Positions 4,713 to 64,000 of a stretch of 64,000 nt of DNA are shown in pieces; the stretch's first letter is position 1, and each line of letters begins with the position of its first letter. The notes beneath the pieces are model-generated. The model saw only the letters and a list, made by a program, of their open reading frames with translations. It made no database searches and was not told the DNA's origin. This stretch comes from Flavobacteriales bacterium (GTDB taxonomy: Bacteria; Bacteroidota; Bacteroidia; Palsa-965). A program made the position numbers and the translations under genes. The stretch covers positions 139,685 to 203,684 of the forward strand of contig JBEIPA010000008.1 in the NCBI GenBank assembly GCA_040377305.1, written 5' to 3'.

Positions 4713-4805
4713 ATGCAACGCGAATTTTGATGCCCAGGGCGTGTTAGTCCTCCTCTCGGATCATCGCGGTAGATAGAAAAACCGGTTATTGGATTTTATG
4801 AGATA
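4713..4805 (-). repeat. Left inverted end of the GxxExxY locus
   Basis: Reverse complement reads TATCTCATAAAATCC-N26-ATGATCCGAG-N7-CTAACA-N10-ATCAAAATTCGCGTTGCAT, matching the units at 5239, 5355 and 5514. Confidence 0.85.
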
Positions 4806-4818
4806 AACTTGGTTGGGC

Positions 4819-5217
4819 TCAAGATGCCTTACGATCATTTTCAAAAATCTTACGTTTGAAACTTGGTTCTTCACCAAAATTCAAGAGCATCCCCACTTCC
4901 ATTCTTGTCGCTCTCAAATAATTTAACAATTGGACCTCATTCTCTGGCGCTAATTTGGTTGCCGCTTTCAGTTCAACAATTACCTTTTCTTCAACAACCA
5001 TGTCAGCGAAATAAATTCCTATCTGCTGATCTCTGTAATAAACAGTAATTGGTTCTTGCGTTTTGAACTTAACTTTCATCTTCTGAAGCTCAATTGCCAT
5101 GGCTTTCTCGTAGTTCTTTTCAAGAAATCCATATCCCAATTCATTGTAAACGTTGTAATACGCACGCAGAATTTTTCCTGTAACATCGCTGTGTAACATA
5201 ACATCTGTATTTATCAT
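4819..5217 (-). CDS. GxxExxY protein (PD-(D/E)xK nuclease superfamily)
   Basis: 132 aa with LGYGFLEKNY (GxxExxY), 'ADMVVEEKVIVELKA' catalytic-type motif and 'QLLNYL..GMLLNFG'. Confidence 0.95.
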   Translation of the reverse strand: MINTDVMLHSDVTGKILRAYYNVYNELGYGFLEKNYEKAMAIELQKMKVKFKTQEPITVYYRDQQIGIYFADMVVEEKVIVELKAATKLAPENEVQLLNYLRATRMEVGMLLNFGEEPSFKRKIFENDRKAS

Positions 5218-5228
5218 TCATATAAAAC

Positions 5229-5607
5229 CTAACGAGCCTATCTCATAAAATCCCAAAATCTAAACGAACTATTCACCCTACTGATCCGAGATCACCGCTA
5301 ACACCAAACACACATCAAAATCCGCGTTCCATTCATCCTCAACTTTAACAAGCCTATCTCATAAAATCCAATATCCAGCCTTTCAAATTTACCGCACTGA
5401 TCCGAGCGATAACCTAACAATTAACGTATATCAAAATCCGCGTTCCATGTTCACCGCTAACACCAAACACACTTCAAAATCCGCGTTCCATTCATCCTCA
5501 ACTTTAACAAGCCTATCTCATAAAATCCAATATCCAGCCTTTCAAGTTTACCGCACTGATCCGAGCGATAACCTAACAATTAACTTATATCAAAATCCGC
5601 GTTCCAT
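5229..5607 (+). repeat. Right-end array of the GxxExxY locus: three full units plus one partial, including a 159-bp-period duplication
   Basis: Units at 5239-5332, 5355-5448 and 5514-5607; 5292-5448 is repeated at 5451-5607 with 3 substitutions. Confidence 0.9.
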
Positions 5608-6773: not shown

Positions 6774-6923
6774 TAACGCTGCAAGGGTTACGCGCGCGCG
6801 TACGCGAACCCTGCAGGAGTTAAACGCTTGCGGGGTTCGAGATTCAGACACGCTCCAAGGGTTAAGCCCTTGAAGGGTTACACGTGCGCGCGAACCCTGC
6901 AGGAGTTAAACGCTTGCAGGGTT
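6774..6923. repeat. REP-like palindrome cluster (AACCCTGCAGGAGTTAAACGCTTGCRGGGTT x2 plus degenerate copies)
   Basis: 31-bp palindromic units at 6807-6837 and 6893-6923, each preceded by a CG-alternating tract. Confidence 0.8.
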
Positions 6924-21834: not shown

Positions 21835-22185
21835 ATGGCTAAAAAAGCAGCTAAGAAAAAAGCAGCTCCTAAGAAGGCAGCAGCTAAGAAAAAGGCAGCG
21901 CCTAAAAAGGCAGCAGCAAAAAAGAAAACAGCACGGAAACCAAATCCTGCGTTCATGAAGCCTTTGACTGCATCTGCAGCACTCGCTGAAGTAATCGGAA
22001 GCAAGCCGATGCCACGTACTGAGATCGTTTCTCAGATCTGGAAGTACATCAAGAAGAACGGTCTTCAGGACAAAAAGAATCGCCGCATGATCAATGCTGA
22101 CGCGAAACTGAAGCCAGTATTCGGAAGCAAGTCGCAAATCTCTATGTTCGAGCTTGCGAAAGTTGTTTCTAAGCACGTGAAATAA
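21835..22185 (+). CDS. SWIB/MDM2-domain protein with histone H1-like Lys/Ala tail
   Basis: (KKAAAKKKAAP)n repeats then 'FMKPLT.S..LA.VIG..PRTE...IW.YIKK..LQD'. Confidence 0.92.
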   Translation: MAKKAAKKKAAPKKAAAKKKAAPKKAAAKKKTARKPNPAFMKPLTASAALAEVIGSKPMPRTEIVSQIWKYIKKNGLQDKKNRRMINADAKLKPVFGSKSQISMFELAKVVSKHVK

Positions 22186-33127: not shown

Positions 33128-33267
33128 ACGGTGTGCTTTGTTTCGGTCAAATATAGAACACGCAGCTGTCGCGTCAAGACCACTTGAAATATCAGCAAAA
33201 GTTTTGAGATGAGTGGGCAGAATCTGCAAGTTAAGGTTAGCCCGATTTGCAAAATCTGCAAACGTAA

Positions 33268-34928: not shown

Positions 34929-37160
34929 ATGAAATTCCGCTTCTTACTTTCTCTATTCGTAACCCACTTTCTTTCTACATCTGCTCTTGCGCAATTGCCT
35001 TTTGAATGGGCGACGAGCACAGGCTCATCAAATACCATGTTCCGCGATGATGGTAATGCGATTACGACAGATGCATCGGGCAACGTATATGTTACCGGAA
35101 CATTTGCCGGAGCAACAGATTTTGATCCGGGCCCGGGAACATACAACCTAACTCCGGCTGGCACCGCAGACGTGTTCATTCAGAAACTGGATGCAGCGGG
35201 CAATTTTGTGTGGGCCATCAACTTTGGTGCAGCAACAACCGTGCACGACGCAGGCTATGAAATTAAAATCGGACCGGACGGAAATATTTACACCTCAGGT
35301 TTATTTAACAACACCGTCGATTTTGATCCCGGTATGGGTGTGTACAATATGACCGCTAATGTTGTTGGTGGATCAGATGTTTACCTGCTGTGCCTAGATG
35401 CGAATGCAGGATTTCTTTGGGCTGCACGCTTTGGCGGAACCGGTGGTGGTGAACACATTTACACAATCACATTTGACGACGACAGCAACCTCCTTGCCGG
35501 TGGCGATTTTCAGGCGACCGTTGATTTCAATCCCGGTGCAGGAACATACACCCTGACATCATTCGGCTCATACGATGGCTTTGTATTGAAACTCGATCTC
35601 GCCGGCAATTTCATTTGGGCAGGACGGATCGGTGGTTCCGGTGGAAGCGAAGTCGTAAATGAAATAGCAACCGACAGTGCAGGGAATGTGTACACCAGCG
35701 GCACATTCGAAGGCCTCACTGATTTTGATCCAACAGTTGGAGTATCGAATCTTGCGTCTGATGGAAACGGAGAACCGTTCCTCGCCAAATGGACAGGCAA
35801 CTGCACGTTGGTGTGGGCGCGACAGATCAGAGGCATTCCGAATGCGAACGGCACTTCAATTGCAGTGGATGCAGCCGGGAACGTGTACGGTACAGGTCGC
35901 TTTTGGGGAATCTCCGATTTCGATGGAGGTCCGGGAACAGCTACTACTGCATGGCATGGCGACTATGACATTTACGTGATCAAACTCGACCCTGCAGGTT
36001 TATTTCGCTGGGCAGTCGGCATCGGTTCAACCACTGAAGATTATGGAAGACGTTTAACGCTGGATGAAGAAGCAAACATTTACGTTGCCGGATATTTCAC
36101 TGGTACCGTAGACTTTGATCCAGGTGCGGGCACGACAAGTTTGTCCGGCCCAGGTGCATCCTACGATGCGTTTCTGTTAAGTCTTGATTCCGCCGGTAAT
36201 TTCTTATGGGCAAAGGATCTCAGCGGAACCGGCAGTGTTCAGATCTTTGATATACATCGGGATGAAGCGGGAAGCATTTATACTACCGGTGTCTTCGGCA
36301 TCACCACGGATTTCGATCCAGGCGCAGGAGTTTTCAATCTCACCTCGAATGGAGGAGGAGATTTCTTCGTTCAGAAATATTACGAGTGCAACAATGCTGG
36401 ATATACGATCAGTCCCGTGACCTGCGATAGTTTTACTTCACCAAGCGGACTGCACGTATGGAATACTTCAGGCGTGTATTACGACACGATTGTGAATCCT
36501 GCAGCATGTGATAGTGCACAATACACTATAGTCGTCAATCTCACGATTACGCAACCGAGCTCGGGCACAATCAATCCGACTGCATGTGGAAGTTATCTTG
36601 CTCCGGACGGCGCCATTTACAACATGAGCGGAACTTACACTGCAATAATTCCAAACGCTGCCGGATGTGACAGTACAATCACAATAAACTTAACGATTGA
36701 AACTGTGGATGTTTCTATCACGCAAAACGGATTGACACTAACCTCCGGAGCAAGCGGCGCGCAATATCAGTGGATCAATTGCAGCAACAACTCCGCAATT
36801 CCCGGAGCAACCAATCAGAATTACACAGTAACGGTGAACGGTAACTACGCGGTTGTGGTGACACAGAATAATTGCACCGATACATCCGCTTGCTTCCTCG
36901 TAAATAGTGTTGGAATTGATGACGCATCTCAAGCTGCAGTGAAGGTTTATCCGAATCCGGCTGGAGACGTTTTGAATGTTGAGTCGTTTGGGTACGGTTT
37001 ACTCACGCTGGTGAATGTTGCCGGAGAAGTTGTGTTTACTACATCGATCACCAAAACAAATACCCAACTTGATGTAACCGGATTACCAAATGGAATCTAC
37101 TTCCTCCAGATTAACAGTGCGCAAGGAATCGCAGTACGTCAGGTGGTTATAGCCCGATAA
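34929..37160 (+). CDS. SBBP beta-propeller repeat protein with T9SS C-terminal domain
   Basis: Seven 'D..GN.Y.TG.F..T.DFDPG.G' repeats; CTD 'VYPNP..GIYFL'. Confidence 0.9.
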   Translation: MKFRFLLSLFVTHFLSTSALAQLPFEWATSTGSSNTMFRDDGNAITTDASGNVYVTGTFAGATDFDPGPGTYNLTPAGTADVFIQKLDAAGNFVWAINFGAATTVHDAGYEIKIGPDGNIYTSGLFNNTVDFDPGMGVYNMTANVVGGSDVYLLCLDANAGFLWAARFGGTGGGEHIYTITFDDDSNLLAGGDFQATVDFNPGAGTYTLTSFGSYDGFVLKLDLAGNFIWAGRIGGSGGSEVVNEIATDSAGNVYTSGTFEGLTDFDPTVGVSNLASDGNGEPFLAKWTGNCTLVWARQIRGIPNANGTSIAVDAAGNVYGTGRFWGISDFDGGPGTATTAWHGDYDIYVIKLDPAGLFRWAVGIGSTTEDYGRRLTLDEEANIYVAGYFTGTVDFDPGAGTTSLSGPGASYDAFLLSLDSAGNFLWAKDLSGTGSVQIFDIHRDEAGSIYTTGVFGITTDFDPGAGVFNLTSNGGGDFFVQKYYECNNAGYTISPVTCDSFTSPSGLHVWNTSGVYYDTIVNPAACDSAQYTIVVNLTITQPSSGTINPTACGSYLAPDGAIYNMSGTYTAIIPNAAGCDSTITINLTIETVDVSITQNGLTLTSGASGAQYQWINCSNNSAIPGATNQNYTVTVNGNYAVVVTQNNCTDTSACFLVNSVGIDDASQAAVKVYPNPAGDVLNVESFGYGLLTLVNVAGEVVFTTSITKTNTQLDVTGLPNGIYFLQINSAQGIAVRQVVIAR

Positions 37161-51961: not shown

Positions 51962-53545
51962 ATGGCTCCACTAGTTACTCTTTACTTTATACCGATCGGC
52001 TTAATTATTGTCGTGATCATTGCAATCGTTCGTTTGATTATTCGTGCATCCAGCGGCGGCAACTCAAATGCGAACAACACGAATTATACAAACTATCGTC
52101 AACCGCCGAATACCGGACAGCCTGGTCAGCAGAATCCGTATAACACCGAACAAAATCCTTATGGGCAAAATCCGAATCCGTATCAGACGAATCCAAATCC
52201 GTATGTGAATCCGGCTGATCCGAACGCACCTCCTCCACCTCCGCCTGCATGGCAGAATCCGGGAACGTATCAGCAACCTGATTACACACAACCGAACTAC
52301 ACACAACCTGATTACACGCAGCAGAATTACACACCGCCGAATCCGAATCAGCCCAACTACGTTCCACCCACGTACTCACAACCCGGAACGTATAATCCAC
52401 AAGGAAATACGCGCAGTACCAGTATTGGTAACACGAACTATTCAACACACGTTGGAGCACCGGCGGACCAGAAGAAAAGTCCTGCAATAAAAATTATTCT
52501 CATTATTGTTGGTGTCGTTGTTGTACTTGGAGCCTCGCTTGCTTATGTTGCTTATCAGCGAAGTGCCGGAGGAGCAGGTCTGGTGAGTTCAGAATTCCGT
52601 CTGGCTTATGATAATCCAACAGAGAATACATACTACATCGTACTTGATGAGTGGGACACTTTAAAAGTTGAGCCATACACATCTTCAGAAGATCTTGACT
52701 ACATGCATCGCCGCGATCTTACTACACATCATTGGCAAATGCTGGATGAAGATCGTAAGGTGATTGCAGACACTACAGTGTCGAAAGAAGAAATGGAAGA
52801 CTGGGAAAGCACGCGCACTGCTTACTTCTGGGATTATTCCACGGTAATTTTCAATCCATCGGGAACGCAGTATGTGTACTACAACTCCTGGTTCGATGAA
52901 GTTGGTCTTGACTACATGGACGACATTAAAGTGGGCGACAGCAGTTATTATGCTGATGCGTATACAATCAACAGCATGTTCATTTTCGACGGCCGCGATC
53001 CGGAATACCAAACCGACCTTGCGGAAGCAACGGAGACGAGTACAGAAATGCAACAGCAATTCCTGTTGAACCAGTACGACTTCGCTGCATTGTATCACAA
53101 GCTCAACAACAGCAATGGCCAGAATGATAAGATGGAGGAATATCAACTCCAGCTTTCATTGCTGTATGAAGTTGCTTACGCCGAAGTTTTGGCAAGCAGC
53201 GCGTATGATGTAGACGACATGGGAACATGCAATACGCTCGACAGCTTAACTCCATCGTGGGTTGATGAAGACACAGAACCTCGTGATTTTATTCCAGCAA
53301 TAGATTACGTGAAAGCGAATGCCTCTTTATTCAGAGCTACAGCACGTGAATACTACGATTACGTAATCGATAGTGCAGATGCATTGCTGAAGCATTCTTA
53401 TACAGTGCAGGATCGTCCGGAAGAGTTCATGGCCATGACCGTAATCTCTTACGATGTAGACGCAGAAGGAATATTCAACGATGAAGGACGCCGGGAAGAG
53501 AGCTGGACGTACGAGAGAGATCCGCAAACGGGAAGCTACTATTGA
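51962..53545 (+). CDS. Hypothetical membrane protein with Pro/Gln/Asn/Tyr-rich linker
   Basis: Two TM segments flanking QNPY/QPDYT repeats; acidic C-terminal domain. Confidence 0.75.
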   Translation: MAPLVTLYFIPIGLIIVVIIAIVRLIIRASSGGNSNANNTNYTNYRQPPNTGQPGQQNPYNTEQNPYGQNPNPYQTNPNPYVNPADPNAPPPPPPAWQNPGTYQQPDYTQPNYTQPDYTQQNYTPPNPNQPNYVPPTYSQPGTYNPQGNTRSTSIGNTNYSTHVGAPADQKKSPAIKIILIIVGVVVVLGASLAYVAYQRSAGGAGLVSSEFRLAYDNPTENTYYIVLDEWDTLKVEPYTSSEDLDYMHRRDLTTHHWQMLDEDRKVIADTTVSKEEMEDWESTRTAYFWDYSTVIFNPSGTQYVYYNSWFDEVGLDYMDDIKVGDSSYYADAYTINSMFIFDGRDPEYQTDLAEATETSTEMQQQFLLNQYDFAALYHKLNNSNGQNDKMEEYQLQLSLLYEVAYAEVLASSAYDVDDMGTCNTLDSLTPSWVDEDTEPRDFIPAIDYVKANASLFRATAREYYDYVIDSADALLKHSYTVQDRPEEFMAMTVISYDVDAEGIFNDEGRREESWTYERDPQTGSYY

Positions 53546-56714: not shown

Positions 56715-58337
56715 ATGAGTAAACGTTTATATCCCCTGCTCGCGCTATTATTTTTTGTGATGGTGACTCCTGCTTATGCGCAGAACGCAATCGACAAAGG
56801 AGCTGACGAAATCAAGCTGTTCAATGCAAGTCAGGCATTCAATGCAGGAGATTATCTCAAAGCGCTGAATCTTTATAAAGAAGTTCAGAATACAAATCCG
56901 AACGATGCGGCAATTGCATTTCACGTGGGTGAGTGTCTGTTCTATCTGGATGAACCCGAGAAAGCAGAAGATGCTTTTGAGAAAGCAAAAGGATTGAATG
57001 CTTCGGCACATCCGGATATCAACTTTATGCTTGGACGTTGTTACCAGCGTAAAGGCCAGATCGACGAAGCAATGACTGAATACACGGCTGCGAAAGCTCT
57101 GAACATGTCGAACGCTGTAAAGTCAAAAGAAATTGACTACTACATGAATCAGTGTCAGACTGCAAAAACCATGATGGCGAATCCAAAGGCCGTTAAAGTT
57201 GCGAATGCTGGTGCTGCTGTAAATAGTCCTTATGATGACAAGCGTCCTTCAATCACTGCAGATGGAAAGACCATGATCTTCACTTCACGTCGTCCGGAAG
57301 GAAGATCAGATCGTGTTGATGATGAAGGTGACCAGAAGTACTTCGAAGATGTTTACGAGTGTCCGTGGGATTCTATGAACCTGACATGGGGAGCAGCGGG
57401 TCTTGCAAAAGGTTCTGTGAATTCAGAAGGACATGATGCATCCTGTAGCATTGCGCCCGATGGCAAACAGCTTTTCATGTACGTGAACAGCGCTGAAGCA
57501 GGTGGCGGTGGAGAAATTTACGTTTCGAAAAAATCAGGTTCCGGAAAATGGGGCACGCCAAAGAACATGGGTAAAGGCATCAATACTTCTTACTTCGAAG
57601 ACGGTGCAGTACTTTCTCCTGACGGCAACACACTTTATTTCATGAGTGAGCGCGGGCAAGATCTTCCTTACAAAGGACAAAAAGGTTACGGCCGTTCAGA
57701 CATCTGGATGTCGAAAAAAGAAGGAAGCAAATGGGGCGAGCCAACGAATCTTGGTCCGACAATCAATACCGAACACGATGAAGGCGGAATTTACCCTGCA
57801 CCAGACGGAAAGACCTTGTACTTCTGTTCGAATGGTCACAACAGCATGGGTGGTTACGACATCTTCATGACGCGTTGGGAAAACGGTGCATGGACAACTC
57901 CGGTGAACATGGGTTATCCGATCAATACAATTTCAAACGAGCGTATGTTCCTGCTTGCGAAAGACGGGAAGTCGGCATACGTTGACAGCGATCGTGAAGG
58001 CGGACTTGGAGAGCGCGACATCTGGATCATTGATATGACCGGAATGATGGCGAAGAAGAAAGAAGGTCCAGTAACATCATTGATCACGGGAACAGTTTAT
58101 AACGGCGACGGAAAAGCAATTGATGCCGACATCAGTGTAACTGAAAACGGATCAGCAGTGAATACATCGAAATCTACTTCAGGAAATTACCAGCTTGAAC
58201 TTGTTGGAGATAAGACCTACGAAATCACAGTTTCTGCACCGGGATATAAAACGGTGAAAGAAACGGTGAAACTCGAAGCAGATAAAGAAGGCGGGACGTT
58301 TGAGACGGTGAAGCATTTTATTCTCTATAAGGAATGA
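56715..58337 (+). CDS. TPR + PD40 beta-propeller + carboxypeptidase-regulatory domain protein (PorE-like, no OmpA domain)
   Basis: N-terminal TPRs, five 'N.G..INT..E..P..DG.TLYF.S' repeats, C-terminal 'Y.I.VSAPGY'. Confidence 0.85.
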   Translation: MSKRLYPLLALLFFVMVTPAYAQNAIDKGADEIKLFNASQAFNAGDYLKALNLYKEVQNTNPNDAAIAFHVGECLFYLDEPEKAEDAFEKAKGLNASAHPDINFMLGRCYQRKGQIDEAMTEYTAAKALNMSNAVKSKEIDYYMNQCQTAKTMMANPKAVKVANAGAAVNSPYDDKRPSITADGKTMIFTSRRPEGRSDRVDDEGDQKYFEDVYECPWDSMNLTWGAAGLAKGSVNSEGHDASCSIAPDGKQLFMYVNSAEAGGGGEIYVSKKSGSGKWGTPKNMGKGINTSYFEDGAVLSPDGNTLYFMSERGQDLPYKGQKGYGRSDIWMSKKEGSKWGEPTNLGPTINTEHDEGGIYPAPDGKTLYFCSNGHNSMGGYDIFMTRWENGAWTTPVNMGYPINTISNERMFLLAKDGKSAYVDSDREGGLGERDIWIIDMTGMMAKKKEGPVTSLITGTVYNGDGKAIDADISVTENGSAVNTSKSTSGNYQLELVGDKTYEITVSAPGYKTVKETVKLEADKEGGTFETVKHFILYKE

Positions 58338-58380
58338 TTCGATGATACAATGATTCGATGATACAATCGAGATAAAAAGT

Positions 58381-60694: not shown

Positions 60695-60868
60695 TCGCAA
60701 ATGATCCAGTGATGCAATGATACGATGATACAATCTGGAGAAAGCGAGGTGTTGATAAGCGTTGAAAAATCTGTGAAAATCTGCGAATCTGCGGCAAAAA
60801 AGACGGGAATCGGCTCTGTGAAAAACTAATCGCCTGATCTTCCGATGGTTTGTCGTAAATTTGCGCCC

Positions 60869-62735: not shown

Positions 62736-63707
62736 TTAGTCGAACGATTGATTAGACTGGCTCGATTGCTTAATGATTTCCTGGTACTCGAGTGGCGTAA
62801 GATCAAGGAAGTAATAACTGATCGGATTAATCTTGTTTCCGTTACGGATTACTTCATAATGCACGTGTGGTCCGCTCGATTGTCCGGTGTTTCCAACTTC
62901 TCCAATAATCTCGCCACGTTTTACTTCCTGACCTGGTGTGACCAGAATCTTATTCATGTGACCGTACAGCGTTTCGTAACCAAATCCGTGATTGATGACC
63001 ACGTGGTTTCCGTAGCCCGACGCTTCTGCATCTGCACGTTCAACAACACCATCGCCGGTTGCATAAATCGGAGTTCCGATCGCAGCGTTGAAATCCATTC
63101 CGGTGTGCATTCTCACGATTTTGAAAATCGGATGCGTTCTGTAGCCGTAACCGGATGGTGTTCCCTTGAGATTCAGGATTGAAATCGGGATGATAGCGGG
63201 TATAGATGCCAGGAGTTTTTCTTTATTCTCGGCTAGCTTGATTACTTCGTCATACGATTTCGACTGAATGTACATCTGCTTTGCGAGCTTATCAATCTTC
63301 ATTGTGGTGGAAGTCATCAGCTGAGAACTCGAGTAACCCTGCAAATCAAGATAACGGTCGGCACCACCGAATCCGGAATGACGAATATCATCCGGAATAG
63401 AATCCGTTTCGAAAATGGCACGGTAGATATTGTCGTCGCGGTCTTCAAGGTCATTGAGGACGAGTGAAAGATTGTCCAGACGTCTGTTCAGAAGATCGTA
63501 CTGCGTGTTCATCTTCTCGAGTTCACGACGCAGCTGCTTCTCTTTTGGAGAATCGAAGTATTTGAAGGCGATGATGACTGAAATAACTCCGATTACCGAG
63601 GCCGTTCCAAGGAAAGATATCACACGGAAAATCTGTGTACGGATAGGCGTTACGGCCTTTTCGTAAGAGAGTGTTTTCGTGTTGTATTTGTATCGGACCT
63701 TTGACAT
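62736..63707 (-). CDS. M23 family metallopeptidase
   Basis: 'MHTGMDF' (HxxxD), 'GYGNHVVINHG', 'GPHVHYEV' (HxH). Confidence 0.95.
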   Translation of the reverse strand: MSKVRYKYNTKTLSYEKAVTPIRTQIFRVISFLGTASVIGVISVIIAFKYFDSPKEKQLRRELEKMNTQYDLLNRRLDNLSLVLNDLEDRDDNIYRAIFETDSIPDDIRHSGFGGADRYLDLQGYSSSQLMTSTTMKIDKLAKQMYIQSKSYDEVIKLAENKEKLLASIPAIIPISILNLKGTPSGYGYRTHPIFKIVRMHTGMDFNAAIGTPIYATGDGVVERADAEASGYGNHVVINHGFGYETLYGHMNKILVTPGQEVKRGEIIGEVGNTGQSSGPHVHYEVIRNGNKINPISYYFLDLTPLEYQEIIKQSSQSNQSFD

Positions 63708-63717
63708 CAGCTTAATT

Positions 63718-64000
63718 TAACCACATAGAATCATAGAAAAAGACACCCTTTGTTAAAGTAGTTCGGACAAGTCCGAACTTACATAGTTCACAAGAGAGCA
63801 ATCTACGATTGCGAACAAATTGACAACCCCTTTACTCTATTTGCACCTAACCTTTGACATGCTTTCGACTCATATTAACCACATAGAATCATAGAAAAAA
63901 GACACCCGTTGTTCAAGGAGTTCGGACAAGTCCGAACTTACATAGTTCACAAGAGAGCAATCTACGATTGCGAACAAATTGACAACCCCTTTACTCTATT
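63718..64000 (+). repeat. Tandem unpaired half-elements (type W) of the E family, 158-bp period, truncated by window edge
   Basis: CCACATAGAATCATAG at 63721 and 63879, each followed by a GTTCGGAC-AA-GTCCGAAC hairpin, CATAGTTCACAAGAG and GCAATC-TAC-GATTGC. Confidence 0.88.

Follow-up and report, generated by a model that had tools for sequence, protein, structure and literature searches.

The tandem repeat at the right edge of the window (the whole stretch of 64,000 nt analyzed here, G000:C60:139685-203684, with contig C60 ending at window position 64000) is, in our judgment, probably a gene-less, REPIN-like hairpin element that lies between an M23-family peptidase gene and alaS, and that carries two or three tandem heads and one closing arm. 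Amplification likely occurred in place and took in about 40 nt of the left flank as well, and the family to which the element belongs has likely spread in trans through a GxxExxY nuclease encoded elsewhere. An earlier note on this DNA had predicted a nuclease gene just beyond the window; this prediction is refuted, as the closing arm runs straight into alaS both on contig C13, where the array continues, and in the unitigs of sequencing run X1. For the edge locus itself, the outcome is modest, namely a gene-less repeat whose amplification broke the assembly.

Anatomy of the array and its continuation on contig C13

The features of the array and its surroundings are as follows (window positions, unless a contig is named):

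62736..63707, minus strand: M23-family peptidase gene, 323 aa, matching M23 endopeptidase models, all below curated cut-offs
63719..63827, plus strand: copy 1 (head A), without closing arm
63721-63736: end motif of copy 1
63761-63778: hairpin of copy 1
63782-63796: inner motif of copy 1
63798-63812: central hairpin of copy 1
63760..63822, plus strand: 63-nt segment identical in all copies, a single unitig in run X1 (depth 32.5)
63828..63876, plus strand: spacer between the copies, holding a decayed duplicate of the left flank
63837..63860, minus strand: decayed copy of the M23 5' end in the spacer, reading MSKVRCK-stop where the gene has MSKVRYKY (identity at 19 of 24 nt)
63877..64000, plus strand: copy 2 (head B), followed by the beginning of a second spacer, truncated where the contig ends and continued in C13
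C13 (locus L001): head B at 33-137, closing arm at 150-165, alaS from 236

The M23 gene is the left neighbor of the array, with its start codon 11 nt from the first repeat. Direct copies of the repeat begin at 63719 and at 63877, a distance of 158 nt (159 with a 1-nt indel allowed for), and aligning the two gives exactly 3 substitutions and 1 indel, in agreement with the 158-bp period and roughly 3 substitutions and 1 indel described previously. The end motif of the element is CCACATAG-nnn-CATAG and the inner motif is CATAGTTCACAAGAG, with a small central hairpin besides. The palindrome GTTCGGAC-AA-GTCCGAAC was recovered at 63761-63778 and in copy 2, as was the parallel hairpin of the element at 33265, and the edge copies align with four other elements in the window. 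The copies had been described as left halves only, whereas each holds about 105 nt of the approximately 131-nt closed variant and lacks the closing arm alone; nor are they unpaired, as the last copy is closed on C13. With DNA parameters, a single folding of the closed unit gives end pairing at -22 kcal/mol.

The likeness drawn to a 159-bp duplication at a GxxExxY locus holds insofar as the duplication at 5285-5602 is real, but that repeat belongs to a different motif family (GGAACGCGGATTT), so that the equal period is no evidence of kinship, which we reject. Array periods in the edge-repeat family itself differ (near 162 on C53 and 188 on C35), and the period thus follows element size. Tandem Repeats Finder reported no repeat at the window edge, probably because fewer than two full copies are in view there.

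BLAST of the repeat unit identified the start of contig C13 as its continuation. This contig opens with the last 32 nt of the spacer, followed by a head identical to copy 2, such that its first 137 nt are repeat; the closing arm, CTATG..CTATGTGG, comes next, and alaS is reached 70 nt past this arm as an ORF of 871 aa (TIGR00344, 940 bits, cut-off 457). The inverted closing half that had been anticipated, CTATG..CTATGTGGT, is therefore indeed what follows the heads (L001:150-165). Between the repeat and alaS on C13 there is no other credible ORF, and none for a nuclease; the next stretch of sequence, proposed as the check on the earlier prediction, thus yields the closing arm and alaS without a GxxExxY or other nuclease ORF. 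The gene order is M23 gene, head A, spacer, head B, (probably a further spacer and head B), closing arm, and alaS.

Two public sequencing runs, X1 and X2, were used in the form of contigs and unitigs. Run X1 is probably the source sample and hence not independent of the assembly, and its 31-letter unitigs cannot phase the loop; run X2 is a related strain from another study. In X1, the locus is represented by a unitig with the left flank and head A (depth 9.7x), the 63-nt shared segment (32.5x), a 156-nt unbranched loop of spacer and head B (20.6x, 0 differences), and a 410-nt exit via the closing arm into alaS (16.3x). The loop unitig crosses the junction between spacer and copy 2 exactly, on which grounds we reject an assembly artefact and take the duplication to be real. 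From the shared segment, only two exits are listed, one into the loop and one through the closing arm to alaS; apart from short matches to other family copies, the X1 graph has no joint or loose end leading elsewhere. The ratio of shared to loop depth (32.5/20.6 = 1.58, where 1.5 is expected for three heads and 2.0 for two) suggests three heads, and the start of a second spacer is also visible in the assembly; two heads are possibly also compatible with the single-copy depths, which are unequal on the two sides of the array (9.7x vs 15.5-16.3x). Run X2 gives a single 511-nt contig (2.7x) that leads from the M23 5' end through one closed element to the start of alaS.

It is extremely improbable that the edge array is the amplified end of an autonomous copy whose nuclease gene is hidden in the C60-C13 gap. 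No nuclease ORF lies between or beside the arms on C13, no branch leads out of the X1 loop, all eight GxxExxY genes of the source genome (99.99% complete) map away from the gap, the related strain is contiguous across the site without such a gene, and the M23 loci of 28 relatives (1.5 kb on each side where present) contain no GxxExxY match. What the hidden gene has in its favor is that no single X1 record spans the whole array, and that there is a GxxExxY-bearing copy of the family at G000:C53:26580-26987, whose downstream tandem array also breaks the assembly. A gene-containing copy with an amplified end thus exists in the family, as had been supposed, but not at this locus, and the rule that an amplified end means an autonomous copy fails, as five of the six tandem arrays of the family lack such a gene. 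A nuclease gene close by cannot be predicted from an amplified end.

The M23-alaS site in relatives and the duplication of flanking sequence

Orthologues of the M23 gene are found in 28 of 30 relatives, and alaS is its divergent neighbor at 21 of these 28 loci, with two of the other seven ending at a contig edge. A single element of the edge-repeat family is present in one of the 21 M23-alaS spacers (G015), and the site is accordingly seen in three states: empty, single, and amplified. In G007 and G013, the empty sites have diverged too far for the insertion junctions to be placed. The unpublished genome G012 contributes one row to the tallies of relatives, motifs and homologues, and no claim hinges on it. 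We note in passing that the M23-alaS spacer of G003 (L022) is 808 nt long, the only long one among the 21, and seems to hold an unrelated ORF, and that other GxxExxY genes appear, by their coordinates, just downstream of alaS in two genomes (G029:C48:148410-148760 and G018:C323:9269-9613).

The decayed M23 copy in the edge array lies in register with the element. The presence of this 5' end in the spacer implies that element and flank were duplicated together, and the repeated unit is most likely, judging from the alignments, the element plus its flank. A piece of a GxxExxY gene, or some other genomic repeat, was considered as the source of the 49-nt spacer and rejected, as BLAST returned no genomic match longer than 18 nt beyond the locus. 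The score of the alignment between spacer and left flank was reached by 1 of 20,000 and 4 of approximately 30,000 random windows in a test devised after the match had been seen, and the match is weaker if the entire array is the query (score reached by 6 of 600 nulls).

The flank copy has diverged at 6 of 26 nt, plus an unalignable stretch, in comparison to 4 of about 105 nt in the heads, and a single neutral duplication does not explain this greater decay. The flank copy also keeps an AGG codon that is found in four relatives, where the source genome has CGA; it may descend from an allele that is older or foreign, or else homogenization may have affected the heads. Duplications that carry flanking sequence also occur at sister loci, as judged from their sequences:

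C35:53192: 42 nt of left flank (0 of 600 nulls)
C48:32336: about 60 nt of right flank (0 of 600 nulls)
C28/C52 junction: 54 of 57 nt

All three are far less decayed than the one at the M23 locus, and none has a nuclease gene. Flank capture was not detected in four long single elements (C7, C26, C45 and C52:127158), nor in the C11:137265 and C53/C11 arrays, and the upstream element on C53 matched only a further partial unit of itself in this test.

Taking these observations into account, we infer an order of events in which a single element of about 131 nt came first, as in the X2 strain, and the closing arm and the M23 5' end would then have recombined unequally, or slipped on short homology, so that element and flank were copied and the closing arm was lost from all but the last copy in the same event. 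For the spread of the family, the GxxExxY protein would bind the 8-9-nt-phased CATAG repeats at the element ends and cut there, after which host repair would copy the element to new sites.

The element family and its association with GxxExxY genes

The end motif occurs 90 times in the genome (up to one mismatch), compared with 4 in the shuffle, and forms 46 clusters, 30 of which are simple inverted left-right pairs. Clusters that also carry the inner motif amount to 39 loci (7 dropped), of which 36 are intergenic (overlap with long ORFs of 25 nt or less) and 15 lie between convergent genes, with elements in every gene orientation. This is, then, a family of about 40 loci, nearly all intergenic, one copy of which flanks a GxxExxY gene. 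The tetranucleotide TTAA precedes 19 of the 39 loci, but may be part of the element end; the element ends may either target or supply TAA stops. About 12 elements of the 39 loci begin directly after the stop codon of a gene. No excision, insertion intermediate or target duplication was seen in the contig-level data from X1 and X2 or at the strongly diverged empty sites in G007 and G013.

Six loci are tandem arrays (the edge locus, C35, C48, C28/C52, C11:137265 and C53/C11), one of which adjoins a nuclease gene. Contig edges fall in family arrays at the starts of C28, C52 and C13 and at the ends of C60, C53 and C11, and tandem arrays of the family account for three assembly breaks; such arrays are thus probably under-counted in short-read genomes. 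The M23 start codon on one side and a conserved box matching the Bacteroidetes -7 promoter consensus (PMC6847099) on the other enclose the edge array, which probably lengthens the M23 leader by 0.3-0.45 kb. This position, together with the intergenic placement of the family, the 15 convergent loci, and the many elements starting at a stop codon, would suit host regulatory elements (terminators, mRNA stabilizers, or binding sites of the GxxExxY protein), with the array kept for tuning M23 or alaS expression. We give this only a slim chance, since the site is empty in 20 of the 21 relatives' spacers and a close strain has just one copy there, the elements show no restriction to any gene orientation, and the motif is absent from 20 of the 31 genomes searched.

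The source genome encodes eight GxxExxY genes:

G000:C53:26580-26987 (region C53:26241-27357 and the end of C11; L008, L069): GxxExxY gene flanked by the edge-repeat family
4819-5217 (region 4776-5602 of the window): second GxxExxY gene, flank family GGAACGCGGATTT, with the 159-bp upstream duplication at 5285-5602
C19:138075, C10:136969, C11:48989, C10:11485, C56:73351 and C50:74871: six more paralogues, with their own inverted 8-9-nt-phased repeats

Each of the eight is bracketed by its own inverted repeat, and each flank repeat, picked by eye from the flanks, recurs in the genome, with exact counts of 5 to 106 compared with 0-1 in shuffled sequence; the GGAACGCGGATTT family provides the upper value (106 exact copies vs 1). 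At the C53 gene, a closed element lies upstream, and the downstream tandem array ends both C53 and C11, which probably join at that array. The C53 protein scores above curated cut-offs for TIGR04256 (126.9 bits) and PF13366 (125.5 bits), and the gene at 4819-5217 also passes the curated GxxExxY cut-offs. Residues G27, E30, Y33, D70, E80 and K82 are invariant in 41 aligned proteins, of which D70, E80 and K82 in the C53 protein are catalytic-type residues. The model of this protein is confident (pLDDT 96), and its nearest folds appear to be 4ic1 (SSO0001), Hjc and lambda exonuclease, all weak matches (best E 1.7e-3, TM 0.54), which gives the protein a faint likeness in fold to PD-(D/E)xK nucleases; we take structure entry 4ic1 to be Cas4. 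Foldseek with this model gave no match at E 0.001 or better, and the best match in a sequence search of solved structures reached only E 0.35.

Among the best 80 of 563 GTDB homologues of the C53 protein, the motif lies at most 300 nt away in 61, and 50 have the left arm upstream and the right arm downstream, compared with 5 motif matches in 134 kb of distal flanks used as control. Once 9 of 130 rows had been removed as fragments or duplicates, the motif was within 300 nt of 66 of 86 close C53 homologues (20 lack it) and of 0 of 35 other GxxExxY genes. The motif label needs 7 changes on the tree compared with a shuffled mean of 40; this is a quick tree, in which the 86-row branch has an SH-aLRT of 82, and we claim clustering of the motif on one protein branch, not a single origin. 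The motif tracks this branch across Bacteroidota, Ignavibacteriota and Acidobacteriota. Of 31 genomes, 8 contain at least three exact motifs, and all 8 have a C53-like gene, compared with 2 of the other 23 (54% identity or more, one broken by a stop), counts that include kin, so that rows are not independent. For two of the eight motif-rich genomes, G007 and G029, the C53-like gene that was recovered is flanked by a variant instead of the exact motif. The flank of G007 is a CACTTAG variant, and in a sub-branch of the C53 clade, mostly Flavobacterium (L104, L105, L108, L112, L114, L120 and neighbors), the flank has switched to a CATATAAG variant. These two variants are natural pairs for finding specificity residues.

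These tallies establish a statistical tie between motif and protein branch at the level of sequence, and provide a candidate protein together with a 16-nt candidate substrate. The GxxExxY gene at C53 is likely the partner of the edge-repeat family, which we infer that its protein would mobilize; that the protein acts on the arms in trans has, on this comparative evidence, about even chances. The anatomy described above would also stand if the gene were a passenger, with the elements owing their spread to host recombination or to some other enzyme, for instance a RAYT. The genome does contain 10 Y1 transposase matches (PF01797), and motif and gene clade could be co-inherited as a cassette without the protein acting on the motif, in a protein family that PMC3424549 lists under PF13366 as function unknown. 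We nevertheless find the passenger reading rather unlikely, in view of the breadth of taxa over which the motif follows one protein branch, and of the eight paralogues each having an inverted flank repeat of its own with further genomic copies. A RAYT as partner is rejected, as no motif occurs within 8 kb of any of the 10 Y1 matches, 4 of which are on contigs free of the motif.

With the GxxExxY protein as the preferred partner, a broader proposal can be framed, which we regard as possible while leaning slightly against it: GxxExxY proteins may be the mobilizers of an undescribed class of REPIN-like selfish DNA that relies on a PD-(D/E)xK nuclease and not a transposase, with each paralogue recognizing its own end motif, and with repeated arm cutting leading to repair that copies element and flank in tandem, giving rise to the empty, single and amplified states at one site. 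Should the C53 protein prove to bind and cut the arms, this would give REPIN-like repeats a second way of spreading, one that needs no transposase.

Comparison with REPINs, MITEs and other repeats

The closest described system is REPIN/RAYT (PMC3116915), which likewise comprises short intergenic hairpin elements with inverted ends, mostly doublets. A genome has several sequence classes of them, each with a gene of its own alongside, and there are also ordered tandem clusters with flanks, most of them away from the gene. In Pseudomonas, according to the same source, ordered REPIN clusters are tandem repeats that include flanking sequence (16 in one genome), and three clusters adjoin a RAYT gene. 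As in REPINs, the conserved end motif here forms an inverted doublet that folds to a hairpin, in 30 of 46 clusters as a simple pair, and is over-represented (90 motifs vs 4 shuffled) and extragenic (36 of 39 loci). In contrast, no cluster lies beside a cognate RAYT (0 of 10 PF01797 matches within 8 kb): where REPINs have a Y1 HUH transposase, the linked gene is a PD-(D/E)xK-fold GxxExxY gene (PF13366, TIGR04256). CATAG units, short direct repeats in phase, make up the ends in place of small palindromes, and a second pair of motifs lies further in. In its workings the array resembles a REPIN cluster, but the RAYT criterion keeps it outside the REPINs.

Like MITEs (10.1101/2024.01.18.576219, PMC9769881), the elements are small, gene-less and intergenic, with inverted ends, and are presumed to rely on an enzyme encoded elsewhere. 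Unlike in MITEs, their interiors are mosaic hairpins and not a fixed core. No target-site duplication could be discerned from the diverged empty sites, no IS transposase was found to share the ends in a search that covered Y1 transposases, and the sole enclosed gene is GxxExxY. With regard to GxxExxY/PDDEXK_3 proteins (TIGR04256, PF13366), the C53 gene and the gene at 4819-5217 belong to this group, whereas the M23-alaS locus has no such gene. One published mention of GxxExxY concerns a gene adjoining a reverse transcriptase. Neither a link between GxxExxY and palindromes or repeats nor the edge repeat itself was found in the literature searched, which lay mostly outside subscription journals. 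The family is apparently unpublished, and the M23-alaS locus is an ordinary one within it.

Other repeats were seen in the same genome. Several ORFs contain coding repeats, and there are short intergenic repeats of the ATACA/ATGAT type (window 35118-36337, 21846-21911, 52274-52333, 58333-58376 and 60700-60743). A CCCTGCAGGAGTTAAACGCTTG-type repeat family recurs between genes and at contig ends (L001:5110-5380, window 6803-6923, and the ends of C8 and C29), and may belong to one of the Y1 transposases.
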